DNA of 54,048 bases from a virus. Lineage: Duplodnaviria; Caudoviricetes. The stretch's first letter is position 1, and each line of letters begins with the position of its first letter. The translations under genes and the position numbers were made by a program. A model generated the notes under the pieces. That model made no database searches and was not told where the DNA came from. It saw only the letters and a program-made list of their open reading frames with translations. Of the stretch, positions 10,055 through 41,617 are shown piece by piece. The DNA is taken from positions 1-54,048 of IMG/VR virus record IMGVR_UViG_3300042864_000277, one strand, 5' to 3'.

Positions 10055-11794
10055 TTGGCAGATAAAGATTTTAAAGTAAAAGCAGGACTTGATCTTGGAA
10101 CCCCCCTTCCTTTAACAGAGGGCGGAACAGGACAAACGTCTGCTAGTAATGCTTTAAATGCAATATTACCAGTTCAGACATCTGCAGCTAATAAATTTTT
10201 ACAATCAGATGGAACGTCTACATCCTGGGTTGCAGCAGCAGTTGTAAATAATGCCACATTCACAGGATCTTCAATTGTTATTCCATCGGGAACAAGTGAG
10301 GAAAGACCAGCATCTCCAGTAACTGGAGCAATTAGATTAAATACAACATCTGGAACATTAGAATTTTATACAGGCACAGCATGGGGATCAATTGCTACTT
10401 TTCCACAACCACCAACATCCCTTGTTGCAACAAATGTTGGCACATCTCGTGCATATAATAATGGTGCAGCATCTGTAGCATTTACTACAGCATCTGCAGA
10501 TGGCGGATCAACAATTACTGGATATACAATTACATCAAATCCAGGTTCATTTACTGCAACGGGTTCAACATCTCCAATAGTTGTAACAGGATTACAGTCA
10601 GCTACTTCATATACATTTACTGGTACAGCAACAAATTCAATTGGTTTAAGCACAGTGTCTTCAGCCTCATCTAGTATTACCGCTACTACTGTTCCACAAG
10701 CACCAACACCTGGAACAGCAACTGCAACGAATACAACTACTGCAAGCTTGCCATTTACAGCTGGTGCTACTGGTGGCTCAACAATAACAAATTATAAATA
10801 TTCAACTGACGGAACAACATATACAGCACTTTCACCAGCTCAAACTACTAGCCCACTTTCAATTTCTGGACTTACATCTGGAACAACTTATACATTTTAT
10901 ATAAAAGCAGTTAATACTAACGGTGATTCTGCAGCATCTACTGCGTATAATTCATTAGCAATGCCTTTGCCAACAGCTCCAAGCATAGAGTATATTGTTT
11001 TAGCTGGAGGCGGCGCTGGAGGTGCGGCATATAATTCAAATGCCTCTGGCGGAGGTGGTGCAGGAGGAATGCTTACTGGAAATCAAGCTATATCTGCTGG
11101 TACAACTTACATAATTACTGTTGGTACAGGAGGTCCTACAACAGTAGGAAATGCTAACACTGGTTTATATTCTTCAGCACCTAGCGGAACCGCAGGAAAC
11201 GCATCTTCTTTTGGTAATTTAATTTCAACTACTGGTGGCGGAGGCGGCGGCGGAGACGCATTGGAGTCAGTTGATAACTACGGGCAACCTAACTGGAGGG
11301 CCGTTGAAGGCGGCGCTGGAGGAAGCGGTGGAGGTGGGTCCAAACGAGGTGGTGGTGGCTATAATGGTGGTTCAGGAATTGCTGGACAAGGAACAAGTGG
11401 CGGTACTGGCGGCTCTAATAATGGTGGTGGCGGCGGAGGAGGAACTAACGCTGGAACTAGCAATGGAGCTGGCGGAAATGGAAAGTCTGGATTTGATTCA
11501 GTAGTACGTGCAGGCGGCGGTGGTGGAGGAACTGTTGGCTCTGCAGGTAACGGCGGTGGTGGTGCAGGAGGCAATGTTACAGGAGCAGCTGGATCAGCTA
11601 ATCTAGGAGGTGGTGGTGGTGGCACAGGACAAGGAACAAGCAGAAGTGGAGGAAGTGGTGGCTCTGGAATTGTAAAATTTAGATATGCAAGCAATTATGC
11701 CGCACCAAATTCCACAAACGGCTCACCAACAGTCAACAATGATGGTGGATACAGAACATATACATTTAATGGAAGCGGACAGGTGACTTTCTAA
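10055..11794 (+). CDS. Fibre protein: KDFKVK anchor, two FN3 repeats and a glycine-rich domain
   Basis: TTG start, MADKDFKVKAGL; IPSGT..ERP....G.IR.NT motif; FN3 repeats; IEYIVLAGGG...GGSGIVKFRY. Confidence 0.75.
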   Translation: MADKDFKVKAGLDLGTPLPLTEGGTGQTSASNALNAILPVQTSAANKFLQSDGTSTSWVAAAVVNNATFTGSSIVIPSGTSEERPASPVTGAIRLNTTSGTLEFYTGTAWGSIATFPQPPTSLVATNVGTSRAYNNGAASVAFTTASADGGSTITGYTITSNPGSFTATGSTSPIVVTGLQSATSYTFTGTATNSIGLSTVSSASSSITATTVPQAPTPGTATATNTTTASLPFTAGATGGSTITNYKYSTDGTTYTALSPAQTTSPLSISGLTSGTTYTFYIKAVNTNGDSAASTAYNSLAMPLPTAPSIEYIVLAGGGAGGAAYNSNASGGGGAGGMLTGNQAISAGTTYIITVGTGGPTTVGNANTGLYSSAPSGTAGNASSFGNLISTTGGGGGGGDALESVDNYGQPNWRAVEGGAGGSGGGGSKRGGGGYNGGSGIAGQGTSGGTGGSNNGGGGGGGTNAGTSNGAGGNGKSGFDSVVRAGGGGGGTVGSAGNGGGGAGGNVTGAAGSANLGGGGGGTGQGTSRSGGSGGSGIVKFRYASNYAAPNSTNGSPTVNNDGGYRTYTFNGSGQVTF

Positions 11795-14596: not shown

Positions 14597-15103
14597 TTGT
14601 CAAATAAAGATTTTAAGGTTAAAAATAAGCTGCAGGTAGCAGGTATTACTTCTGCTGGCCCGCTTGTCTCAGATGCCTCTGGTAATGTAGATTCAACTTC
14701 TTCAATTGCCACACAATTTGGCGGAACAGGAACAACAACATCTCCCAACTCTGGAGAATTTTTATATTCATCTGCTGGAACTACATATGCTGCAACTTCA
14801 TTATCAACCACCGTCCCTCTTTGGTCGGCAGTATCAGTAAGCTCAAATATAACACTTTCTAAATGGAATAACTATATGGTTGACACATCTGCTGTAAGAA
14901 CATTGACTCTTCCAGCATCACCATCATCTGGAGATGAAATTCATATTTTTGATGTAACTGGAACAGCAGCAACAAATAAAATTACAGTAAGTTCAAATTC
15001 AAATAAAATAAATGGTTCAGTTCAAGATTTAGACATAGATGCAAATAATGCAGCAGCTGTTTTAATCTATACTGGATCAACTTATGGATGGAGAGTAGGA
15101 TAA
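14597..15103 (+). CDS. Fibre anchor/adaptor protein (KDFKVK motif)
   Basis: TTG start, MSNKDFKVKNKL; C-terminal YMVDTS..RTLTLPASPSSGDEI.I.D...GW fibre module. Confidence 0.65.
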   Translation: MSNKDFKVKNKLQVAGITSAGPLVSDASGNVDSTSSIATQFGGTGTTTSPNSGEFLYSSAGTTYAATSLSTTVPLWSAVSVSSNITLSKWNNYMVDTSAVRTLTLPASPSSGDEIHIFDVTGTAATNKITVSSNSNKINGSVQDLDIDANNAAAVLIYTGSTYGWRVG

Positions 15104-17103
15104 TGGCATTAAGTTATACAAGTTTATCTGGGGGCGGCGGAGCAGCAACAAATGATTTTAATATAAATGTAGGATCTTCTGGCTACACAAATGTTTCACT
15201 GACAACAACTTTTCCAGCAGGTAGTTACATATGTACATCTACTCTATCAGACGCCACACTTGATATTTATTTAATTAATGAAGACGGAACAAGCGCAGGA
15301 TATGCAAATGCAACAACTTCATCAACTACTGTTGTTGCATCTAAATCTTTTAATAAGGTTGTTATTTATGGAGCTGCAAATAATGACATTTTAACATTTC
15401 AATTTTTATATGTTTTTAATCCTACCGATGTAGGAACAAATGTTGCAGCAGCTGCAAGATTAATATCAACAGGCACTGCCTCTCTTCCAAATATAAATAA
15501 TACAACTGTTTTAACTGGCCAAAATTTTGCTACTGATGTTGAGGTAACATTTACTGGATCAGATTTAGTCGCTAGAAATGCAAAATCTGTTACTAGAACC
15601 TCTTCTACATCTTTAACTGTTACAAGACCAGATGATATGCCAACTACATATTCACCCTATACAATTACTGCAACAAATCCTGGAATTTCTGTACCAACAT
15701 CAACAAATGCACATAAACTAATAAATGCAATAACAGTTGGAGCAGCACCTGTCTGGGTCACATCTGCTACACTTCCAACGTTTTTTACAAATCTTGCATA
15801 TTCAACAACTTTATCTGCAACAGATGCTGACGGAAGCTCTTCAATAACATATTCACTTGCATCTGGATCCCTTCCTTCTTCAATGACATTAAATTCTTCA
15901 ACTGGAGTAATTTCTGGAACCTCTAACTCTGCTTCTGCTGGATCATTTACTATTAGGGCTACCGACTCTGGCGGCAACTTTGTAGATAGAGCATTTACAA
16001 TGGCAAGACAAACAGTTCCAGTAGCTCCAACATCAGTTGTAGGAACAAAAACTTCAACAGTAGGTGCCATTTCTGTTGCATTTACAGCACCAACAACTGG
16101 ATACACACCTACATCTTATACCGTTACATCTAGTCCAGGCTCAATTACTGGAACAGGCTCTGCCTCACCTATTATTGTTTCAGGATTAACTGGTGGAACT
16201 AGCTATACATTTACGGTAACTTCTACCTCTGCACAAGGAACATCTGCAGCAAGCTCTGCATCTTCTGCAGTTACAGCTCCAACTACATTAACAACAACAT
16301 TTAATTCCAGTGGCACTTTTACAAACCCAGGAGTATCAAATGTTGAGGTTCTAGTTGTTGGCGGCGGCGGCGGCGGAGGGTTCGGCGGAGATAATCTATC
16401 TGGTGGATTTGGCGGCGGCGGCGGCGGCGCAGGCGGAGTACAGTATTCTGCCGCTCTTTCAATTAGCGCAAACACTAACTACGCAGTAACAGTTGGCAAT
16501 GGCGGCGGAGGCGATACTAGCGGAAACTCTTCAGTATTTGCAAATCTAACTGCCCTTGGAGGAGAAAGAGGAGCAAATAGTACTGCAAATGCTAGAGTAA
16601 CTGCAAATAGTGGATTTGGTTCAGGTGGCGGAGGTGCGACAGTTTCAAATAATACTATTAATACTAATAGACATTTAGGAGGAACAGGAACATCTGGGCA
16701 AGGAAAAGCTGGATCTACCGCATATGCAAACAATGCTGGTGGAGGAGGCGGTTCACTAAATGCCTCTCCAAACTCAAGTGGAAATACTGTATCTACTGCT
16801 TATTACGGCGTACCAGGCGGAGCCGTAACTTACTTTGGAAGTAAATACGCAGCAGGTGGTGGAGGAGCAAATCCTTATTCTCCATACACATCAGGTGACG
16901 GATTGGGCGGGGCATCTGGCTCTGCTGGAGATTCCCGTTTCGATAACTTTAGAGCTTTTACATTGCCTGGTGCAGGAGCGAATGGTACTGGTACTGGAGG
17001 CGGAGGAGGTTGTGGATGGGTAAATATTATTAATTCAAATTCACAAAATACATCTGGTGCAAGCGGTGGTAATGGGGTGGTGATCTTAAAATATGTCGGT
17101 TAA
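15103..17103 (+). CDS. Ig-like/FN3 plus glycine-rich fibre tip protein
   Basis: Likely start is ATG 15103 (TAATG overlap). It has a putative Ig module (ATDADG...YSLASGSLP...LNSSTGVISGT), an FN3 repeat and a Gly-rich domain ending GGNGVVILKY. Confidence 0.7.
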   Translation: MALSYTSLSGGGGAATNDFNINVGSSGYTNVSLTTTFPAGSYICTSTLSDATLDIYLINEDGTSAGYANATTSSTTVVASKSFNKVVIYGAANNDILTFQFLYVFNPTDVGTNVAAAARLISTGTASLPNINNTTVLTGQNFATDVEVTFTGSDLVARNAKSVTRTSSTSLTVTRPDDMPTTYSPYTITATNPGISVPTSTNAHKLINAITVGAAPVWVTSATLPTFFTNLAYSTTLSATDADGSSSITYSLASGSLPSSMTLNSSTGVISGTSNSASAGSFTIRATDSGGNFVDRAFTMARQTVPVAPTSVVGTKTSTVGAISVAFTAPTTGYTPTSYTVTSSPGSITGTGSASPIIVSGLTGGTSYTFTVTSTSAQGTSAASSASSAVTAPTTLTTTFNSSGTFTNPGVSNVEVLVVGGGGGGGFGGDNLSGGFGGGGGGAGGVQYSAALSISANTNYAVTVGNGGGGDTSGNSSVFANLTALGGERGANSTANARVTANSGFGSGGGGATVSNNTINTNRHLGGTGTSGQGKAGSTAYANNAGGGGGSLNASPNSSGNTVSTAYYGVPGGAVTYFGSKYAAGGGGANPYSPYTSGDGLGGASGSAGDSRFDNFRAFTLPGAGANGTGTGGGGGCGWVNIINSNSQNTSGASGGNGVVILKYVG

Positions 17104-20732: not shown

Positions 20733-21983
20733 ATGGGCTCAACGTCAAAGGGTTTTAGTTTTCCCGCTTATTCAGATCCGCCAGATATTCCTGCGGACAT
20801 TCAACTACTTGCACAAAATATTGATACATATCTAACAGCAAATCCAGGCGCACAAGGATCTGTTGGAACGCAGGGTTCTCAAGGCGTAGTTGGACCACAA
20901 GGAGTTCAGGGAACTCAAGGTGTTCAAGGAACAACTGGATCGCAAGGAACGCAAGGAACTACTGGAGCACAAGGAACTATTGGTGCACAAGGTGTTCAAG
21001 GGTCTGTTGGCGCACAAGGTGTTCAAGGATCTCTTGGTGCACAAGGTGTTCAAGGAGCTACTGGCCCACAAGGATTGATTGGAACACAGGGATCTTTAGG
21101 TACACAAGGATCTGCTGGAACGGGCGTAAATATTTTAGGTACGTATGCAACTTTGGGTGCATTACAATCTGCTCACCCAACAGGAACACTTGGCGATGGA
21201 TATTTAATTGGATTAAATCTTTATGTTTGGACTGGCTCCCAATGGACAGATTCTGGTCCAGTTCAAGGACCGCAAGGAACTACTGGCGTACAAGGAACTA
21301 CTGGTGCACAAGGTGCAGTTGGAACACAAGGCGCATTTGGAACACAGGGTTCAGTTGGTGCACAAGGAACTGATGGAGCACAAGGAAATACTGGCGCACA
21401 AGGAACTACTGGTGCACAAGGTGCAGTTGGAACACAAGGCGCAGTTGGAACACAGGGTTCAGTTGGTGCACAAGGAACTGATGGCACACAAGGAACTACT
21501 GGAGCACAAGGAACTACTGGCGCACAAGGCACAGTTGGAACACAAGGAACTTTAGGCGCAACTGGAACAATACAGACTAACTCGGCGGTAGTTGGATTAA
21601 TTGAAACAGCGAATGTAGTTGCAGCAGCAACATCATCTACCATAAATATGGATGTCACAACTTCAAGCGTTTGGTATTATACAACAGGTTCAACAAGTGC
21701 ATTTACTTTAAATGTTAGGGGAAGCTCAGGAACAACTCTTAATTCATTATTATCTACTGGACAATCAATTACCGTTGCATTTTTAAATACAACTGGAGCC
21801 TCAACAGCATCTTATCCATCAACATTTCAAATTGATGGGTCTACTCAAGGTAGCATAAAGTGGTTAAATGGAACGGCACCAACAGTTGGCAATGCCTCAT
21901 CAATAGACTCTTATATATATACAATACTTAAAACAGCATCTGCAACATATACTGTATTCGGATCACAAACTAAATACGCATAG
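20733..21983 (+). CDS. Collagen-like fibre protein
   Basis: Two G-X-Y tracts flank a small G.L.D.Y.I...LYVW.G..W module. The C-terminal beta domain has IKW..G.AP...D.Y.Y.I.KT. Confidence 0.8.
   Translation: MGSTSKGFSFPAYSDPPDIPADIQLLAQNIDTYLTANPGAQGSVGTQGSQGVVGPQGVQGTQGVQGTTGSQGTQGTTGAQGTIGAQGVQGSVGAQGVQGSLGAQGVQGATGPQGLIGTQGSLGTQGSAGTGVNILGTYATLGALQSAHPTGTLGDGYLIGLNLYVWTGSQWTDSGPVQGPQGTTGVQGTTGAQGAVGTQGAFGTQGSVGAQGTDGAQGNTGAQGTTGAQGAVGTQGAVGTQGSVGAQGTDGTQGTTGAQGTTGAQGTVGTQGTLGATGTIQTNSAVVGLIETANVVAAATSSTINMDVTTSSVWYYTTGSTSAFTLNVRGSSGTTLNSLLSTGQSITVAFLNTTGASTASYPSTFQIDGSTQGSIKWLNGTAPTVGNASSIDSYIYTILKTASATYTVFGSQTKYA
21294..21490 (+). repeat. Near-identical duplication with a 108-nt period in the collagen tract
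   Basis: The unit ggaactactggtgcacaaggtgcagttggaacacaaggcgca... begins at 21294 and again at 21402. Confidence 0.75.
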
Positions 21984-21997
21984 GGGGCGGAAGATAA

Positions 21998-23194
21998 ATG
22001 CCATTATTCCAATCGCTAGCTAGTTTATCTGCAAGAGGCTTAGTAAAGGTGGGAGCAAGTAAACCATTAGCTCCATCAATTACTTCTGTATCAACAATAA
22101 ATTCTACTTCAATAACATTAAACTACACACTTGGAAATGCTAATGGGTCTCCAATTACAACAATTGCAATTACATCATCTCCTTCAATAGCTCTTACTTA
22201 TACAAATACAGATCTAGATGGATCTCTAACAGTTTCTGGTACATTTGCAGCAAACCAGGCATATACATTTACAATGACTTCAACAAATGCATTTGGCACA
22301 AGTGATTCAAGCTCTTCATCAAGCTCATTAACCCCGCTTCTTGCAGCCACAGTAACTGGTGGAACACTATCTTCAGACGCAACACATTATTATAGAACAT
22401 TTACAAGCAGTAGCAACTTTGTTGTTTCGTCTGTTGCTGTAGATATTGAATATTTAGTTATAGCAGCTGGAGGTAGTGGTGGTTCAGGATTTGGTGGAGG
22501 AGGTGGCGCTGGAGGTGTAGCAACAGGCTCACAGTCTGCAGTTCTTGGAACATTAGTGGTTACTGTTGGAACTGGCGCACTTTCTTCTAATGATCAAGGA
22601 CTAAACGGTGGAGCATCATCCCTCGGTAATAATGTTAGTACAACTGGTGGAGGTGGAGGAGGAAGTCCAACAACAACACCAACTGAAGCAGGAAAAGCAG
22701 GTGGATCAGGCGGAGGCGGCGGTAGTAGCGGTTTTGTTGGATACAATAATGGTGGAACAGGAATTACTGGTCAAGGAAAAGCTGGAGGAAGAGGTTATAG
22801 AGCAAGTACACCAGTTAATGGAGGTATTGGATCTGGAGGCGGAGGCGGATACTCTAACGTAGGCCAGGACGGACCAGCTGGAGGATTCCTTGGTTGGGGA
22901 GGAAATGGAATATCTTCATACTCTGCTTGGGCAACAGCAACATCTACTGGCGTAGACGGATGGTATGCTGGCGGAGGATCAGGTTCTGGAGGATATATGT
23001 CAGGGATTACATATAATGCCTCAGGAGGTTATGGGGGCGGAGGAAATACTACCTACAACGCTGGATTTTCTAATGGTGGAGCAAATGGCACTGGTTCTGG
23101 AGGAGCAGGTGTAGCATTTTATGGAAACCCTTCTGGTGCAGGCGGTAACGGTATAGTAATTGTTAGATATCTTAAATCTGCGGTAGGTGGATAA
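21998..23194 (+). CDS. FN3 plus glycine-rich fibre tip protein
   Basis: FN3-like repeat, YYRTFTSS, IEYLVIAAGG and C-terminal GGNGIVIVRY. Confidence 0.7.
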   Translation: MPLFQSLASLSARGLVKVGASKPLAPSITSVSTINSTSITLNYTLGNANGSPITTIAITSSPSIALTYTNTDLDGSLTVSGTFAANQAYTFTMTSTNAFGTSDSSSSSSSLTPLLAATVTGGTLSSDATHYYRTFTSSSNFVVSSVAVDIEYLVIAAGGSGGSGFGGGGGAGGVATGSQSAVLGTLVVTVGTGALSSNDQGLNGGASSLGNNVSTTGGGGGGSPTTTPTEAGKAGGSGGGGGSSGFVGYNNGGTGITGQGKAGGRGYRASTPVNGGIGSGGGGGYSNVGQDGPAGGFLGWGGNGISSYSAWATATSTGVDGWYAGGGSGSGGYMSGITYNASGGYGGGGNTTYNAGFSNGGANGTGSGGAGVAFYGNPSGAGGNGIVIVRYLKSAVGG

Positions 23195-34315: not shown

Positions 34316-37300
34316 ATGGCTGATGAAAACATAGTCACGAATATAGTCGCTAATGCTGACTTTTCAGATCTAATTGCAAATGTCAATAAGGTTACTACTA
34401 ATCTTGCCCAATTAAAACAAACTCTTACAACAACTGATAAAGCGCTTGCATTGCAAGCAGCAAAGATTCAACAGAATTTTGCTTCAACATTAAGAAGCAC
34501 AGGGCAGTTCTCCACACACTTTGTAAGCCTGTCTTCCGATGTAGATAAGTTTGGAAAGAATTTAGATTCTGGAAAACTTAAGTTAAAAGACTATTATGGC
34601 ACATGGCAAAATCATTCAAAAACTGCAGGCGGTTTAATTAGAGATTTAGCAAAACAACAAGTTCAATTACAAAATTCTATTCTTCAACCATTAGGCAGAA
34701 ATGCTGAAGGGTTAATGCAATTTAACGTACAGGTCCCAAGAGGACTGGACGTAACAAAGAATAAGGCTGCACTGCTTAAGCAAGAAATGCAGATCATGAA
34801 TAAGGTAATTCAAGATGGCGGAGTGCAATTAATTAACTGGGGTAAGAATACTCAGTGGGCAGGACGTCAGTTAACCGTCGGACTTACTGTTCCAATCGCA
34901 GCATTTGGCAAAGCAGCAGCAGATGCATTTAGAGTCGCAGACGAACAACTAGTTAGACTTACTAAAGTTTATGGTGGGGTTGCACAAACTTCTGCTGTAG
35001 AGCTAGGAAAAATTAGAAAAGAAGTTGCAGCAACAGCAAAAGATTTAGCACAACAATACGGTGCATCTTATACCGAGACTATAGCTTTAGCAGCGGATAT
35101 TGCGGCAACTGGAAAACAAGGAGAAGATCTTCTTAACTCAACTAGAGAAACAACAAGGCTAGCAGTCCTTGGAGAAGTTGATCGTCAAGAAGCAATGAAG
35201 GCTACGCTTGCAATTCAAACAGCATTTAATCAAAATACACAACAGCTTTCTGAGTCGATTAACTTCCTCAACGCAGTTGAAAACCAAACCTCAACTAGCC
35301 TTGCAGATTTAGTTGAAGCAATTCCAAAAGCTGGACCAGTTGTAAAGTCTTTAGGCGGAAGTGTACAAGACCTAGCTCTTTATTTAACTGCTATGAAAGA
35401 AGGCGGAATCAATGCATCAGAAGGCGCAAATGCAATCAAGTCATCCTTAGCTTCTCTTATTAACCCAACTAAAGTTGCAAAGGAAATGTTTGCAGGATTT
35501 GGAATAGATTTAGGTGGAATCGTAACAAGCAATGCTGGAAATTTAACAGCAACAATATTAGAATTACAAAAGGCACTAGACACACTTGACCCATTAACTA
35601 AATCAAAAGCAATTGAACAACTATTTGGAAAGTTTCAGTTTGCTAGATTGTCAGCCTTATTTGATAACCTAGGAAAACAAGGAAGCCAAACACTAGAAGT
35701 TTTAGATTTAATGAATGCTAGTGCATCAGATTTAGCAAATGTAGCTGGACGAGAATTAGCACAAATTACAGAATCGGCTTCTGGTAAATACCGTAGAGCA
35801 TTAGAAGGACTAAAGGCAGATCTTGCAGGAGTTGGAGATGCGTTCCTTAATATTCAAACATTCTTTATTAACTTAATTGACAAGGTAATTGAATTTAATA
35901 ATAAACTTCCCGACCCAATTAAAAAGATTTTAACATTAGTAGGTGGGCTAACAGCACTAGCAGGTCCTGCAATTATGTTAACTGGTGTTCTTGCTAACTT
36001 CTTTGGATATATTATCAAGGGAGTTGCACATTTTAAGGCATTGTTTAAAGGCGGAGAAGGCTGGAAGTTATTAACTCCTGAAATTTTAGCAGCTCAAAAA
36101 GCTGGAAATCTTATGGAAACAACATTCTATAGCGATGCAAAAGCAGCAAACATTTTGGGACAAGCGCTAGCCAATTTAAATTTAGAACTAGATGAGCTAA
36201 CTAGAAAAGCAAGTTCTGGAACAATATCAGCAACACCAGTAATATCAACAATTGCGGGAAATACTTTAATGGGTGGTGCAAGAGAAGTTGTTCCAAGCCA
36301 TCCACTTGTAAGCGATAGAGATACTAGATCTTTTTCTCATCCAAATCCAGTAAGCCAGATGACACCAGAACAAAAAGCTGCACAAACAATATTTGGCATT
36401 GTTCCAGGAGCACCATTAGTTAATCAAAAAATAAGCAATAACCCACAAATGTATATGTCTGGCGATCTACCAAAGATAGAAGGAGTCAGCTCAATACGTG
36501 GAGTTTCAACAGGAATTGTTGCAGAAGAAGCTGCTAAATTCCATTCAATGACTGGCGCACTAGCAATGCAGTCACAACAAGAAATAGCAATACTTAAAAA
36601 AGAAATAGCGGCTACTGGATTAATTACCACCTCATTGTCAGATTCATATCAAGCACTTCTTCCAGAGATGTCAAGAATAACTAGTTTAGCGGCAACAGAG
36701 TCAGCGCAGATAGTTGCAGAGCTTCAAGCGTCTAAAATAACTGTTGATCAGGCAAGAACAAAAATTATTGCATTAAACCAACAGATTGAAGCAATGATGG
36801 GGCAGGCAGCAACAGGAGTTGCTACTGCACAAGGAAGAACAATCAATTTAACTCAACTTCCAATTGTAAATCAACCAGCGTTTGATCCAGTAACTGGAAA
36901 AGCTAATATGAAAGAGTTAACAAGACCAAGAAATAGAACTCTTATAAATAAGATTGCGGGAGCCCTAGGAGTTAAAACTTACGGTGCACCATACTCAATA
37001 GAAACAACAAGACCAAAAAGATTTAACATGGGTGGAAAGGTATTCTATAATAATGGAGATCAGGTTCCAGGATCTGGAAATACTGATACCGTTCCAGCAA
37101 TGCTTACTCCAGGTGAGTTTGTAATCAGAAAGGGTGTTGCACAGCAAGATCCTGATGGAATGAGAGCCCTTAATGATGGACAGGCTATGATTGTTCCAGT
37201 TCAAGGTAGACAGCTAGGCGGAGTAATTGCAAGCATAAGAAATAAAATGATTGCAGTAGGTGCCTCTAGAGGCGTTACAATGAGCAGCAAGGGGCATCAA

Positions 37301-40300
37301 AGAACAAGTGGATTTAATGCATTTTCAACACCTGGGGCAAGACCAGGTGGATTCGGATATTCTGATTTTTCTTCTCCTAGGTTTTTTAAATCTAAGGCTG
37401 GCAGAGAAGTTTCTAGATTATACGGGGCAAGGCCATTAAAGAGAGTTCGTGGCGCAGACGGCAAAATTGATAAAAGACAGTCAGAAGTAAATATTCATGC
37501 AGTAAGTGAAGAGTTTTTAGATACATACGGTTTACCAAAAGGAACAGCTTCTACACCAGATTTAAAAGGCTCAGAATTAATTGCTTTAGGAGCAACTGGC
37601 AAAATAGACCCAGATAAAGTATACAGAGTTCTTCCAGCAATGTCAGTTAAAGGATCTCAACATTTTAACGAAAAGCTAAATGACAAAACTGCAACTGCTG
37701 CAGATTGGGTAAAAATTGGTCCAGGAAACTTAACCGACCTTGCAATGCACCTTCATCACGAGCTTGGGCTGCCTCCAGCTGTTGTAAATAATATATTATC
37801 AGGAGCAGCAAATAGAATAAACTATAAAGTATTGTCAAACCGTGGTTTAATTGACGAACAAGATTTTGCAAAAATAGTATTTGATTCAGCAGAAGAATCA
37901 ATTGCATCTAACTTTAAAGCTTCAACAAACAACTGGGTTGGAATGAATTCTGGGGGAATTGTACCAATGATGGGCGGAGCAGTTACATCACAAGGCGGAA
38001 GAAGTATTCCAGCTCCAGTTCAAAATGGAAAATATAATATGGGCGGAATGGTTCCAGGTATGCAATACTTTGGAAGTAATATGCGTGGAAGAATTGTAAA
38101 GCCATTATCTTCATCAATAATTAATAAACTAACTTCTAAGTGGAAGCCAAAGAAACAATTCTATCCACAAGGAATGCAATATACATTAGGAAACCAAGAT
38201 CCATTACATGGACCATTACAAATTGGTAGAGCAATGCATGTTGGATCAAAATCACATCACGATCCCTTTGAGAAGGACCCATTTGCAAGAACTATAGAAA
38301 TTGCTTATAACGATCCACAATTTGCACGTATGGCGCATGTTCCAGGATTCCCAGTTGGAACATTAGAAGATCGTGGTAAATACATACTTCGTCAATATAT
38401 GGAAGGCAACTATGGAATATTAAATACTCCAGGTGCTACAGAAGCAATAAAAACTTTATCAAAGAAATTTAGTGGAAATCTTTATAGAGGAATTCGTTTA
38501 AGCAATAATAGATCAAACCCACTGCCACAAAATATTTTAGATGCTCTTACACAAGCAAGAGCAACTGGAGATTATTCAGGTTTAATTGGAAAAGAATTTA
38601 TTATGCGTCGCTCTTCATGGAGTTCAGACAGAGGCGTTGCCTCAATGTTTGCTCCAGGATTTAGAGCAGACACTGAAGGTAAATCAATTTTATTAGAAGC
38701 TTTAGTAAAAAATAGAAATGTTGTGCCATCTTCAGAAATTTTCCCACAAGCAAAATTTGCGGCACCATTTGGACAAAAGCTAACAAACAATTCAAGATCA
38801 GAAAAAGAATCTATATTTGGCGGAAAGTTTAGAATTGTTAATGCAGAAAATGGAAGACTGCAACTAGAAACAGTTGTAGATGGTGCTCGTGCAATGGGTG
38901 GTCCAGTAAATGCTGGAAGACCTTACCTTGTTGGAGAAAATGGTCCAGAGCTATTTGTTCCTAGAAACGCAGGCGGGATAATTCCAGGATATCAAGATGG
39001 CGGAGATGTTAGACCTAATAGCGGTGGATTTATCGCTGGCCTTAAGAACCCATACGGAAGAGGCTTGGCTAAAGGAATGTCTAGAGGCCCAATGGGACTA
39101 CCAGCACAACTTGGAATTGGAGTGGCAGGTGGAATTGCTGGATCAATGGTTGGCGGAAATACTGGAACAGCAATTATGATGGCGTCAAACATTCTTCCAA
39201 TGATGACTGCAATGAAAGGATTTTCTGGACTTCTGCCTACTATAAAAACGGTAGCAACAATTTTAGGAAGATTAACAATTCCAGGGGCTCTTATCGGAGC
39301 TTTAGCTGGAGTTATAGGATTAATTAATAAATTTAAAAAAGATGCCGAAGACGCTGGTAAAGTTAATCGTGCAATGTTTGGCGGGACAAAAGAACAACTT
39401 GCAGAAGTAGGAATTCAATATACTTCAGTAGCAGAAAGAATGAAGGCTGTCAGAGAAGAATTAGAATTAACTCAAGCTAAAAATGCATCAAACTATGCAT
39501 CAATGACATCTTCTGGAATACCAGGATTAAATTTAACAATTACTCAGCTAAAAGAAGGCATAAAAGATGCAAAGATTAATGCAAAAGATACTGTAGATTT
39601 GTTTAACAACATAGACTCTGCAAGAGTAAATGATTTAGCAATTGCAATGAAGGCACAATACGTCTCACTTGGAATGAGTGTCCAAGAAGCAACAAATAAG
39701 ATATACACTCTTGTGAGCGCATCAAATAAATCTTCACAGGCTCTGGCATCAATAACTACTACAGGGTTTAAAGAAATTGAAGATAGATCATCTGCGGCTA
39801 TGACATCTGTAAAATTGCTTGGCAAAGTAGTTTCTGACAAATCATTATTTAATGTAGAAGAATTTGCAAATGGACTAGATGCTGTACTAAATAATTTAGA
39901 CTCATACATGAACTCCCTTATTGGAACTAAAATTGATGGTAAAAAAATTACAGAAGCAGATGCATTTAAAAAGACTATTGACGAAATTAAAAAGATTAAG
40001 TCGGCCACACAAGAAATTGATCAAGCAAATCTTCAGGAGCTAAAAAGCCAGAACCTTGTTCTTGGCTCAATGCTTAGCAATTCCGAAAGCATTCTAAGTG
40101 TTTTTGCAAAATATAAACTTTATTTATCTGGATTGTCAGATGTCTTAGATATAGGTGGACTAAGCGCAACGGATGCAATAAACGCAGTAAACGGATTTGA
40201 AGAACTACAAAGATCAGCAACAACAGTACTTGGAAGCACAAGTCTTGGAAAAGCAGCGGCAGCTGCAAAAGCGGCAGCAGAGGATGCGGCAACTGCTGCT

Positions 40301-41617
40301 AAGAATGCACAAAAGATAGATGGTTCTTTTTATGACGAGGCTATTAAAAATAAAGAAGAATTAATAGACAAGCTTGAAGAAGAAAGAAAAAAGAGATTAG
40401 CAATACTAGATCTTCAGGAAAGATCACAAAGTTTCGAAATATCTATAAAGCAAGCGCAAATTAAATATCAAGAAGCGTTGGCTTCTGGAAATATGTCAGA
40501 GGCGGCACAAGAGCAATTAAACATACAAAAATTACGTGGGGAAAGAGAAAAAGAATTAGCTAGAAATTCTATTAACGATAAGGCTGATGCTGATCGTAAA
40601 AAGATTGAAGACGAAATTGAAGCCCTACAAGCAAAGAAAGATGCTTTGCAAAAAGCATTAACTGTTGCTGGCAAAAGACAATCTGCAACAGCTGATAAAT
40701 CAGCTGAGCTACAGGCACTACAGAATCAAGTTGCAAATATAGTTGCAAAATATGCGGGCTCTCCAGCAAAAGGTATTACTTCATTGATGGAAGTTTTACA
40801 AAAAGCAAAAGAAGCAGGGGGGCCACAAAAAGCAGCTGCAGAAGCATTAATTAAAGAATACACTGGAAGAAAAGCTTATGATGGCAGAGAGATAAGAGAA
40901 ATAAGTCCTTATCAAGCCATGATGAATGAATTTTCAAGCAAGTCTGTAGCAGGAGCAGATCAAAAGTTTGCAAGTGCTGTAGATATATTCTTAGAAGCAG
41001 TTAAGTCTTTTAGGGAGGGTGTTTCAAATAACCGTTCGTCTTCTCCAAATAAATTTGGCGGAGATACCCCAAATATACAAGCAAAAACACTTAAAGAAGC
41101 TGCTAAAAAAGGACAGTTGTCTAAATCACAATTTACAGATCCAAATACTAATTCTAACTATAAATTATTTAAATATAACGGAAAAACTTATGCGGTGGAC
41201 TCAGTAGGAGTTGCATATGAATTTGATTCTGTATCTAATAAAGTTGGCAAAAGAGCTAAGATGGCTATGGGCGGATATGTAAGTGGAGCAGGAAATGGAA
41301 CATCTGATTCAATTCCAGCAATGCTCTCAAATGGAGAGTATGTTGTAAGTGCAAAAGCTGTCCAGGCAGCAGGAATACCTATGCTTGATAAAATTAATAA
41401 AATGGCTATGGGTGGTCCAGTTTATAATGTTCCAGCATATTCAATGGGAGGAAGAGTTAAATATAATAATGGGGGTATGGCAACTTCTTCAAACTCCCTG
41501 TATAATATTAACGTTACACTTAATGGAACAGACATGTCTGCAGATGACGTAGCAAATGCAATTGAAAGAAAGATGAGAATTCGTGAAGCAACAATTGGAA
41601 GAGGGAGAAATAACTGA
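34316..41617 (+). CDS. Tape measure protein (2433 aa) with internal cargo domains, including an ADP-ribosyltransferase-like domain
   Basis: TP901-type core (G..LT.GLT.P, N.VEN.T..S..DL, G.NA.K) and D.(V/I)PAML..GE(F/Y)V and YLVGE.GPELF.P motifs; follows the chaperones. Confidence 0.9.
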   Translation: MADENIVTNIVANADFSDLIANVNKVTTNLAQLKQTLTTTDKALALQAAKIQQNFASTLRSTGQFSTHFVSLSSDVDKFGKNLDSGKLKLKDYYGTWQNHSKTAGGLIRDLAKQQVQLQNSILQPLGRNAEGLMQFNVQVPRGLDVTKNKAALLKQEMQIMNKVIQDGGVQLINWGKNTQWAGRQLTVGLTVPIAAFGKAAADAFRVADEQLVRLTKVYGGVAQTSAVELGKIRKEVAATAKDLAQQYGASYTETIALAADIAATGKQGEDLLNSTRETTRLAVLGEVDRQEAMKATLAIQTAFNQNTQQLSESINFLNAVENQTSTSLADLVEAIPKAGPVVKSLGGSVQDLALYLTAMKEGGINASEGANAIKSSLASLINPTKVAKEMFAGFGIDLGGIVTSNAGNLTATILELQKALDTLDPLTKSKAIEQLFGKFQFARLSALFDNLGKQGSQTLEVLDLMNASASDLANVAGRELAQITESASGKYRRALEGLKADLAGVGDAFLNIQTFFINLIDKVIEFNNKLPDPIKKILTLVGGLTALAGPAIMLTGVLANFFGYIIKGVAHFKALFKGGEGWKLLTPEILAAQKAGNLMETTFYSDAKAANILGQALANLNLELDELTRKASSGTISATPVISTIAGNTLMGGAREVVPSHPLVSDRDTRSFSHPNPVSQMTPEQKAAQTIFGIVPGAPLVNQKISNNPQMYMSGDLPKIEGVSSIRGVSTGIVAEEAAKFHSMTGALAMQSQQEIAILKKEIAATGLITTSLSDSYQALLPEMSRITSLAATESAQIVAELQASKITVDQARTKIIALNQQIEAMMGQAATGVATAQGRTINLTQLPIVNQPAFDPVTGKANMKELTRPRNRTLINKIAGALGVKTYGAPYSIETTRPKRFNMGGKVFYNNGDQVPGSGNTDTVPAMLTPGEFVIRKGVAQQDPDGMRALNDGQAMIVPVQGRQLGGVIASIRNKMIAVGASRGVTMSSKGHQRTSGFNAFSTPGARPGGFGYSDFSSPRFFKSKAGREVSRLYGARPLKRVRGADGKIDKRQSEVNIHAVSEEFLDTYGLPKGTASTPDLKGSELIALGATGKIDPDKVYRVLPAMSVKGSQHFNEKLNDKTATAADWVKIGPGNLTDLAMHLHHELGLPPAVVNNILSGAANRINYKVLSNRGLIDEQDFAKIVFDSAEESIASNFKASTNNWVGMNSGGIVPMMGGAVTSQGGRSIPAPVQNGKYNMGGMVPGMQYFGSNMRGRIVKPLSSSIINKLTSKWKPKKQFYPQGMQYTLGNQDPLHGPLQIGRAMHVGSKSHHDPFEKDPFARTIEIAYNDPQFARMAHVPGFPVGTLEDRGKYILRQYMEGNYGILNTPGATEAIKTLSKKFSGNLYRGIRLSNNRSNPLPQNILDALTQARATGDYSGLIGKEFIMRRSSWSSDRGVASMFAPGFRADTEGKSILLEALVKNRNVVPSSEIFPQAKFAAPFGQKLTNNSRSEKESIFGGKFRIVNAENGRLQLETVVDGARAMGGPVNAGRPYLVGENGPELFVPRNAGGIIPGYQDGGDVRPNSGGFIAGLKNPYGRGLAKGMSRGPMGLPAQLGIGVAGGIAGSMVGGNTGTAIMMASNILPMMTAMKGFSGLLPTIKTVATILGRLTIPGALIGALAGVIGLINKFKKDAEDAGKVNRAMFGGTKEQLAEVGIQYTSVAERMKAVREELELTQAKNASNYASMTSSGIPGLNLTITQLKEGIKDAKINAKDTVDLFNNIDSARVNDLAIAMKAQYVSLGMSVQEATNKIYTLVSASNKSSQALASITTTGFKEIEDRSSAAMTSVKLLGKVVSDKSLFNVEEFANGLDAVLNNLDSYMNSLIGTKIDGKKITEADAFKKTIDEIKKIKSATQEIDQANLQELKSQNLVLGSMLSNSESILSVFAKYKLYLSGLSDVLDIGGLSATDAINAVNGFEELQRSATTVLGSTSLGKAAAAAKAAAEDAATAAKNAQKIDGSFYDEAIKNKEELIDKLEEERKKRLAILDLQERSQSFEISIKQAQIKYQEALASGNMSEAAQEQLNIQKLRGEREKELARNSINDKADADRKKIEDEIEALQAKKDALQKALTVAGKRQSATADKSAELQALQNQVANIVAKYAGSPAKGITSLMEVLQKAKEAGGPQKAAAEALIKEYTGRKAYDGREIREISPYQAMMNEFSSKSVAGADQKFASAVDIFLEAVKSFREGVSNNRSSSPNKFGGDTPNIQAKTLKEAAKKGQLSKSQFTDPNTNSNYKLFKYNGKTYAVDSVGVAYEFDSVSNKVGKRAKMAMGGYVSGAGNGTSDSIPAMLSNGEYVVSAKAVQAAGIPMLDKINKMAMGGPVYNVPAYSMGGRVKYNNGGMATSSNSLYNINVTLNGTDMSADDVANAIERKMRIREATIGRGRNN

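Follow-up and report, generated by a model that had tools for sequence, protein, structure and literature searches.

The 54,048-bp IMG/VR virus record IMGVR_UViG_3300042864_000277 (estimated completeness 45%), the whole of which is referred to here as the window, codes on its plus strand for a 2433-aa tape measure protein (TMP; 34316..41617), and the middle of this TMP holds a predicted ADP-ribosyltransferase (ART) domain carried on an optional cassette. Essentially all long open reading frames (ORFs) of the window lie on the plus strand. Portal, protease, capsid and head-tail adaptor genes precede the 2433-aa ORF, which stands in the position of a TMP gene, with an Ig-domain tail protein and two small ORFs upstream and minor tail proteins downstream. 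It represents the half that carries the structural genes of an uncultured siphovirus (~105-120 kb), kin to the Streptomyces 'BE cluster' phages (Stanwilliamsviridae), which are its nearest cultured relatives with 57-59% identity in the portal and 32-34% in the TMP N-terminus.

An earlier note on this DNA, made from its letters alone, had called the 2433-aa ORF a tape measure protein, and family profiles bear this out. PF10145 (PhageMin_Tail) matches residues 240-438 with an E-value of 1.7e-28 (100.3 bits against a cut-off of 33.2), TIGR01760 scores 95.2 bits (cut-off 28.8), and PHROG TMP families match as well, the top one being phrog_10030 at 1.8e-121. The ORF is further syntenic, within the same gene order, with the annotated 2104-aa TMP of Streptomyces phage Mildred21, to which its N-terminal ~574 aa are 34% identical; homology and synteny together thus identify it as a TMP. 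The Mildred21 protein (locus L060, 9088-15402) has only the N-terminal ~600 aa and some coiled coil in common with the window TMP and is without an ART; around its residues 1898-1996 BLASTP gives a weak match whose end, 'GYSGNTGNS', may resemble an M23 peptidase motif. Tail length amounts to roughly 1.5 Å per TMP residue. The related BE1 phage Riptide, with a tail given as 328 nm (PMC12509530), would fit this rule if its TMP resembles that of Mildred21.

The predicted catalytic domain is encoded by 38357..38878 on the plus strand (TMP residues ~1348-1521), the part that corresponds to residues 39-212 of an AlphaFold2 (AF2) model and aligns there to solved ARTs. Within it the elements of an R-S-ExE signature follow one another on the same strand. 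The codon of R1391 (38486..38488) belongs to an [YFH]-R-G motif on predicted strand beta-1 (LYRGI, nt 38480-38494). S1434-W1435-S1436 (38615..38623, within SSWSS at 38612-38626) forms an S-x-S/T motif that closes the second predicted strand, with a helix after it. The ExE motif E1496-K-E1498 (38801..38809; E1496 at 38801-38803, E1498 at 38807-38809) lies in SEKESIFGGK (38798-38827) at the start of a strand predicted to follow a long loop. The translation confirms in place every motif that the earlier note had read here, SILLE and KFRIV included. When the TMP is scanned for these motifs in order, in the loose form [YFH]RG..S.[ST]..E.E and spaced as in ARTs, a single match appears (1390-1498); the pattern also arises in 51 of 2000 residue shuffles of the same protein. 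Taken by itself the motif is only moderately unlikely by chance, and suggestive, no more; for this reason the case for an ART rests on conservation and the predicted fold.

Conservation was read from an alignment of 88 rows, made up of 45 from the window and IMG/VR and 43 domain pieces from proteins of a library of cluster representatives, some rows overlapping between the two sources. Among ungapped rows, the most distant of which are ~38% identical to the window, R1391 is kept in 86 of 86, and S1434, E1496 and E1498 are each kept in 87 of 87. The glycine of the aromatic-R-G motif is likewise present in all 86 ungapped rows and is preceded by Y, H or F. The S-x-S/T motif, compared in 87 rows, has W (79) or F (8) in the middle and S (82) or T (5) at its third position. 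In three pairwise comparisons the ratio of nonsynonymous to synonymous substitution rates (dN/dS) of the ART core is 0.15, 0.17 and 0.20, equal to or below that of the rest of the second half of the TMP, and the domain is under purifying selection. Between the window (38357-38878) and its closest relative, L004, the dS is 0.089 in the ART core and 0.30-0.58 in the flanks, which hints at a recent exchange of the module between lineages.

An AF2 model of the region, built on the 45-sequence alignment, has a mean predicted local distance difference test score (pLDDT) of 79.6 and a predicted TM-score (pTM) of 0.73. In this model R1391 falls within the strand 74-85, S1434-W-S1436 at the end of the strand 118-127 with a helix (130-134) next, and E1498, as model residue E189, opens the strand 189-202 after the loop 167-188; the predicted structure thus places R, S-W-S and ExE on the secondary-structure elements expected of an ART fold. 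Comparison of the model by VIA-align with 48,161 representative PDB chains gave 23 chains with Z>=5, of which 12 had Z>=8. The top 14 are all ART toxins or effectors (Z 9.7-7.8, root-mean-square deviation 3.0-4.9 Å, 128-148 residues aligned), among them the Listeria ART-ARH toxin, Vis, CPILE-a, C3stau2, C3bot2, Certhrax and VIP2, as well as C2-I, Tre1, SpvB, ExoS, HopU1 and C3larvin. Ranks 15-23 are taken by the RHS2 toxin domain, XopAI (two entries), ART2.2, anthrax lethal factor, SdeA, SidE, the SdeC mART domain and lymphostatin. Foldseek returned nine PDB matches at E<=0.001, all of them ARTs, with Vis the best at 1.6e-5. Its 48 matches at the same threshold in BFVD are, where named, phage ARTs, ModB, or fusions with head-morphogenesis, portal or minor-capsid proteins; a Serratia phage ModB matches at 3.6e-5. 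No protein among the top 50 BFVD matches bears a tape measure name, about a third of them being nameless. The ART reading is favoured because two independent structure aligners, run against two libraries, gave ART-only top lists; that TMP residues ~1348-1521 adopt an ART fold and are homologous to ARTs is, on the predicted model, very probable.

By sequence the domain stands apart from described families. It scores below the gathering threshold (23.4 bits) of PF03496 (ADPrib_exo_Tox), and by this comparison is not a member of that family; it belongs to a separate, previously undescribed ART family. The nearest named clusters in the ESM Atlas are PF03496 (0.92) and Mod_ADP_RT (0.91). PHROG matches near the ART are confined to residues 1521-1568, none falling on the domain itself, and a phmmer search of the PDB yielded a single leucine-rich repeat protein at E 9.4, which we rejected as spurious. 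By sequence profile the closest likeness is to the T4 Mod enzymes ModB and ModA (PF26816, Mod_ADP_RT), and in both these enzymes and the domain the central residue of the S-x-S motif is aromatic. Against T4 ModB alone hhalign gave an E-value of 3.2e-4 with a probability of 39% and aligned YRG, S-x-T and ExE, pairing R1391 with ModB R73(-G74), S1434-W-S1436 with S99-F100-T101, and E1496/E1498 with E171/E173. ModB R73, S99, E171 and E173 are invariant in a small alignment of the Mod family. This profile-profile match is consistent with the motif but weak, and we do not use it as proof of homology. The Mod enzymes moreover differ from the window ART in being small, free-standing, early and non-virion proteins, and the similarity lies below the family level (hhalign probabilities of 16-39%).

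The ART domain is part of a larger unit of presence and absence, encoded by 38060..38989 on the plus strand (TMP ~1249-1558, 310 codons) in which a basic lead-in comes before the ART domain and a Gly-rich tail with GPELFVP after it. We delimit it to residues ~1249-1558 because ART-less relatives (P0052 and P0054) join '...KYNMGGMV' directly to 'YQDGG..GLKNPYG'. Two copies of a 17-nt imperfect direct repeat (repeat family D1) lie 930 nt, or 310 codons, apart, and both coincide with the junctions of the module. The left copy (38042..38058, plus strand; reference copy GGCGGAATGGTTCCAGG) encodes G1243-G-M-V-P-G1248, and the right copy (38972..38988, plus strand), 82% identical to it, encodes G1553-G-I-I-P-G1558, so that each copy specifies GG[MI][VI]PG. 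Short two-copy repeats often arise by chance; this pair coincides with junctions that were defined independently of it.

The earlier note had proposed comparing related TMPs for presence or absence of the domain. A search with residues 1-640 of the TMP, in which scoring was confined to the 8,000 candidates with the most words in common, turned up more than 4,700 relatives, and the closest 120 were listed (73-98% N-terminal identity). The module is present in 49 of these 120 and absent from 71. P0052 and P0054, which are without the ART, and P0053, which has it, all have N-termini 98% identical to that of the window. A tree built from the first 640 residues of 121 sequences, that of the window among them, requires at least seven changes between presence and absence, and in P0015 and P0031 the module sits near the C-terminus instead. 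Being absent from 71 of the closest 120 TMPs, two with 98% identical N-termini among them, the module is an optional, accessory in-frame cassette of the TMP.

Beyond the closest relatives, an exhaustive phmmer search of 1.84 billion cluster representatives with the ART domain gave 43 proteins at E<=0.001. Nearly all are longer than 1900 aa, and in most the match lies near position 1300-1600. A profile search for free-standing relatives of 80-399 aa gave only five short unannotated proteins, which are probably fragments. In IMG/VR there are 47 ART loci, and in 45 of them no stop interrupts the frame upstream of the domain over 939 codons or more, as far as the edge of the locus. The TMP is split upstream of the ART in the other two (L055, 1-6558; L056, 1-3441). 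The upstream ORF of L055 (3..1928) is read in a different frame from the ART-bearing one and overlaps it, which looks like a frameshift, whereas L056 has a stop codon in frame (2506-2508) with an ATG shortly after it, at 2518. Genuinely split genes, recoding and errors of sequencing could each account for this. The module was found only in uncultured phages: no carrier turned up among 72,556 plasmids, and in 185,579 species genomes none of 59 pattern matches was confirmed.

The rest of the TMP is itself modular. Over 30 full-length ART-bearing homologues, residues 1-950 and ~1240-2400 are conserved. Between them, immediately upstream of the ART module, lies a hypervariable cassette (37181..38029, plus strand; TMP ~956-1238, including a Gly-rich linker from ~1206) that BLASTP covers in only five of the 30 homologues, with only three relatives in IMG/VR; other relatives have unrelated sequence of similar length at this position. 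Its AF2 model (five sequences, pLDDT 47.8) and its best ESM Atlas score (0.82, residues 951-1220) are both uninformative. The segment could be a second cargo slot.

Three Gly-rich modules of the 'MGG.V ... [VI]PAML..GE[FY]V' or GPELFVP kind punctuate the protein, all on the plus strand. The first, 'MGG ... VPAMLTPGEFV' (37022..37180; TMP ~903-955), resembles the C-terminal one, and BLASTP finds cross-matches between the two in relatives. The middle one, of the GPELFVP type, is encoded by 38876-38995 (TMP ~1521-1560). The last, 'MGG ... IPAMLSNGEYV' (41267..41500; TMP ~2318-2395), is the usual C-terminal motif of TMPs and is matched by PHROG TMP C-terminal families at 2304-2394. From these sequences the TMP looks as if built of units each ending in a motif like a TMP C-terminus. 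Lambda gpH is described as cut in a glycine-rich region near its C-terminus (PMC12617516), and by analogy the Gly-rich modules are possible processing sites. Downstream of the ART module a Gly-zipper-like and hydrophobic segment is encoded by 39107..39334 on the plus strand (TMP ~1598-1673), with a GxxxG-rich run from ~1600; hydrophobic segments lie at 537-571 and 1645-1673, the latter with Kyte-Doolittle windows above 1.4. Besides the variable cassette, the ART is the one recognisable effector domain in the window TMP. Several larger members of the same TMP family (P0077-P0087, P0008, P0011, P0004 and P0089; 3,150-3,820 aa) carry CHAP (PF05257) and LysM (PF01476) domains in addition to the ART, and P0088 (3,199 aa) carries OmpA (PF00691); judged by these domain matches, the TMPs of the large relatives are multi-enzyme proteins.

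The window ART can be compared with several known systems. Its best structural matches are C2/C3-like toxins and interbacterial ART effectors (Vis, C3, VIP2, iota/C2-I, Certhrax, ExoS, SpvB, HopU1, Tre1 and the Listeria ART-ARH toxin), with which it has the arrangement of R, S-x-S and ExE in common. It differs from them in being only 12-21% identical, in scoring below the PF03496 threshold, in having no immunity or ADP-ribosylhydrolase (ARH) partner gene that we found in the window or in four complete related genomes, and in its context, a phage structural protein instead of a secreted toxin. T4 Alt and the MuF- or portal-fused VIP2-like ARTs are alike in that an R-S-E ART resides within a virion protein and enters with the DNA. 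Injected ARTs of this kind have been described, including Percival gp4 and Goodman in actinophages (PMC9503650, PMC7302621), as have actinophage MuF-VIP2 fusions (PMC7302621). The carrier differs, however: these ARTs are in head proteins, whereas the window ART is in the tail TMP of a siphovirus. Two broad surveys, devoted to phage ARTs and to polyvalent proteins, never use the word 'tape' in their main texts, though their supplementary tables might list such an architecture; the settings that they give for phage ARTs are head proteins, as in MuF and portal fusions, for the most part or with enrichment in myoviruses (PMC9503650, PMC5512222). In the full-text literature searches made, we met no report of an ART within a TMP. 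Polyvalent proteins (Iyer et al. 2017) combine several effectors with a processing peptidase in one polypeptide; in the window TMP one effector is recognisable beside the variable cassette, and no peptidase was detected. The other likeness is to cell-wall hydrolases embedded in TMPs, that is, enzymes deployed on ejection, for which the T5 pb2 peptidase, the Rpf-like motif of TM4 and the muramidase of phiIPLA35 are named as examples (PMC11445458, PMC12617516). Unlike the window ART, which would need NAD+, these act on peptidoglycan outside the membrane; because NAD+ is cytoplasmic, an ART in a TMP implies that a portion of the TMP ends up elsewhere than these hydrolases do.

We propose that the best overall explanation, one that we hold with moderate confidence, is an optional, divergent R-S-ExE ART cassette in the TMP that is delivered to the host by TMP ejection. 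On the predicted structure the domain is a divergent but genuine R-S-ExE mono-ADP-ribosyltransferase, and it is probably catalytically competent and NAD+-binding. The ExE signature goes with arginine-directed transfer. TMPs are described as filling the tail lumen, being expelled on opening of the tip, and being proposed to insert in the membrane and form a DNA channel (PMC11445458), and their Gly-zipper segments have been linked to membrane permeabilisation (PMC10240207). In the proposed course of events the TMP would fill the tail lumen and be expelled ahead of the DNA at infection, and the ART would leave the virion along with it. The ART would be stored in a non-globular, unfolded form within the tail tube, since folded ARTs on each TMP copy would hardly fit there side by side. 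With the hydrophobic Gly-zipper segments on its flanks inserted in the membrane, the ART would pass into the NAD+-containing cytoplasm, fold again there and modify a host protein ahead of all phage gene expression. The outcome would be functionally analogous to the head-packaged T4 Alt and the MuF-ART fusions, with the tail as carrier. Delivery into the host with the ejected TMP is plausible, and is favoured because the module is an optional cassette under purifying selection and because the literature has TMPs expelled into the envelope. That the enzyme acts after ejection, in the newly infected cell, we regard as about as likely as not.

Several results weigh against this reading. Pfam at E<=10 places no family on the ART domain, and PF03496 run against the six frames of the window at the same threshold gives no match; only five of 45 family members touch PF03496 at all, the best at E 0.049, below the cut-off. 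The NCBIfam search matched only a tail motif outside the ART, and a profile search of the PDB gave no match on the domain. The hhalign comparison is weak, with a probability of 16% against the Mod family alignment and an E-value of 0.46 against ModA. The Foldseek TM-scores are modest (0.36-0.47 overall, 0.36-0.42 against the PDB), and by VIA-align's own guidance a best Z of 7-8 is common for unrelated models. With regard to delivery, the poor fit of one folded ART per TMP copy in the tube lumen means that storage would need an unfolded state, and Pfam finds no processing peptidase domain in the window TMP. Finally, no cultured carrier of the module was found in 50,697 phage records by blastn and three divergent protein queries. 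The earlier note had proposed an ART fold at TMP residues ~1350-1520 and read it as an Alt-like enzyme delivered by the TMP. The AF2 and Foldseek comparison that it called for returned ART-only top lists from the PDB and BFVD, in agreement with VIA-align. Of its interpretation, the structural part, a conserved R-S-ExE domain of ART fold in a real TMP, is supported by the fold, the conservation and the Pfam and TIGRFAM matches, whereas the functional part (delivery by TMP ejection, an Alt-like takeover or anti-defence role, and action before phage genes are expressed) is an inference. The reading is limited in that the domain is not recognisable as a sequence member of Pfam ADPrib_exo_Tox.

The absence of any sequence-family match, together with a loose motif that shuffling reproduces in 51 of 2000 trials, would suit a chance motif in a non-helical linker with no ART domain behind it. 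This is effectively refuted by the ART-only top lists of two structure aligners in two libraries, by the conservation and by the dN/dS. Given the fold, the domain might nonetheless be a catalytically dead ART-like module with a structural role in the tail as plug, spacer or hub contact. Inactive ART-like domains do exist, anthrax lethal factor and the N-domains of binary toxins serving as analogies; lethal factor, itself ART-like, is among the VIA-align matches (Z 6.5), and the window domain sits in a structural protein. Such domains, however, lose their catalytic residues, whereas here R, S and both glutamates are unchanged down to ~38% identity, and a module absent from 71 of the closest 120 TMPs is dispensable for tape measuring; we regard a dead fold as very unlikely.

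If the domain is active, its substrate may still be other than a protein. It might be an NAD+-consuming or -binding module, for instance an NAD+ glycohydrolase interfering with defence signalling that depends on NAD+, or an ART with nucleic acid as its target, like some R-S-E enzymes that act on DNA, such as pierisin and Scabin. The conserved residues serve NAD+ binding and activation and leave the acceptor unfixed, and virion-packaged NAD+/ADP-ribose enzymes have been described as counter-defence tools (PMC9503650). Yet the DNA-acting Scabin is matched by VIA-align only at Z 3.8, the best structural matches are protein-modifying toxins, and both ExE glutamates, typical of protein-arginine ARTs, are strictly kept, and we consider this reading distinctly unlikely. 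The enzyme might alternatively work in the producing cell, newly made TMP ADP-ribosylating a host or phage protein late, before tail assembly, so that the virion copy is spent or a passenger. The TMP is made in NAD+-containing cytoplasm and would have no membrane to cross. Neither an ADP-ribosylhydrolase (PF03747) nor a Macro (PF01661) gene was found in the window or in four complete related genomes, and the presence of the enzyme in the infected cell is evidently no obstacle to the phage. It is not obvious, however, why a late enzyme should be fused into the middle of a structural protein that fills the lumen, and at a conserved slot; late ARTs, T4 ModA and ModB among them, are free-standing as a rule, and neither the 43 matches nor the five fragment-like proteins supplied a free-standing relative. 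Action in the producing cell is, in our estimate, unlikely.

Delivery of the cassette with the ejected TMP may also be part of something broader. It is conceivable that the middle of this TMP family is a tail-borne slot for effector delivery, with the GG[MI][VI]PG/MGG motifs as recombination joints and processing sites, and that the cassettes, the ART and the neighbouring ~250-residue hypervariable segment alike, pass the tube unfolded and refold in the host cytoplasm. We offer this proposal tentatively, as a possibility and not as the expected outcome.

The host of the lineage is likely actinobacterial, because a WhiB-type protein scores above the Pfam cut-off in all four complete related genomes with the same ART module (104-116 kb), Corynebacterium being the sole positive among 14 control genomes; the window itself has no WhiB gene. 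The Streptomyces hosts of BE phages have a far higher G+C than the phages themselves. The window has a G+C of ~33-44%, and the cultured Streptomyces BE phages, according to the abstracts describing them, ~49-50%. The low G+C of the window and the WhiB genes of its relatives suggest an actinobacterial host of low G+C. Upstream of the head genes the window carries a large fibre arsenal: collagen-like or tail-fibre-like proteins at 3-1976 and 20733-21983, with many PHROG tail-fibre matches, and three phrog_2295 paralogues (10055-11794, 15088-17103 and 21998-23194).

With neither a phage in culture nor a known host for the ART module, the value of the finding has its limits. It nevertheless adds a previously unrecognised ART family, of 43 clusters among 1.84 billion representatives, that is invisible to Pfam. 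Virion-delivered ARTs have so far been known only as head cargo (T4 Alt, MuF and portal fusions, polyvalent proteins), and TMP-embedded enzymes only as cell-wall hydrolases acting outside the membrane; a TMP with an NAD+-dependent enzyme at its centre would unite these two ideas. The natural pairs of ART-plus and ART-minus TMPs with 98% identical N-termini form a ready comparison for fitness and host range, and for the lengthening of the tail by a globular insert. The domain also bears on the old question of where an ejected TMP goes: if the ART acts on cytoplasmic proteins while phage expression is blocked, part of the TMP crosses the membrane. Should the middle of the TMP prove to be an effector slot, siphophage tails, and not only phage heads, would inject enzymes, part of the TMP would enter the cytoplasm, and ADP-ribosylation of cytoplasmic targets would report the location of the ejected TMP.

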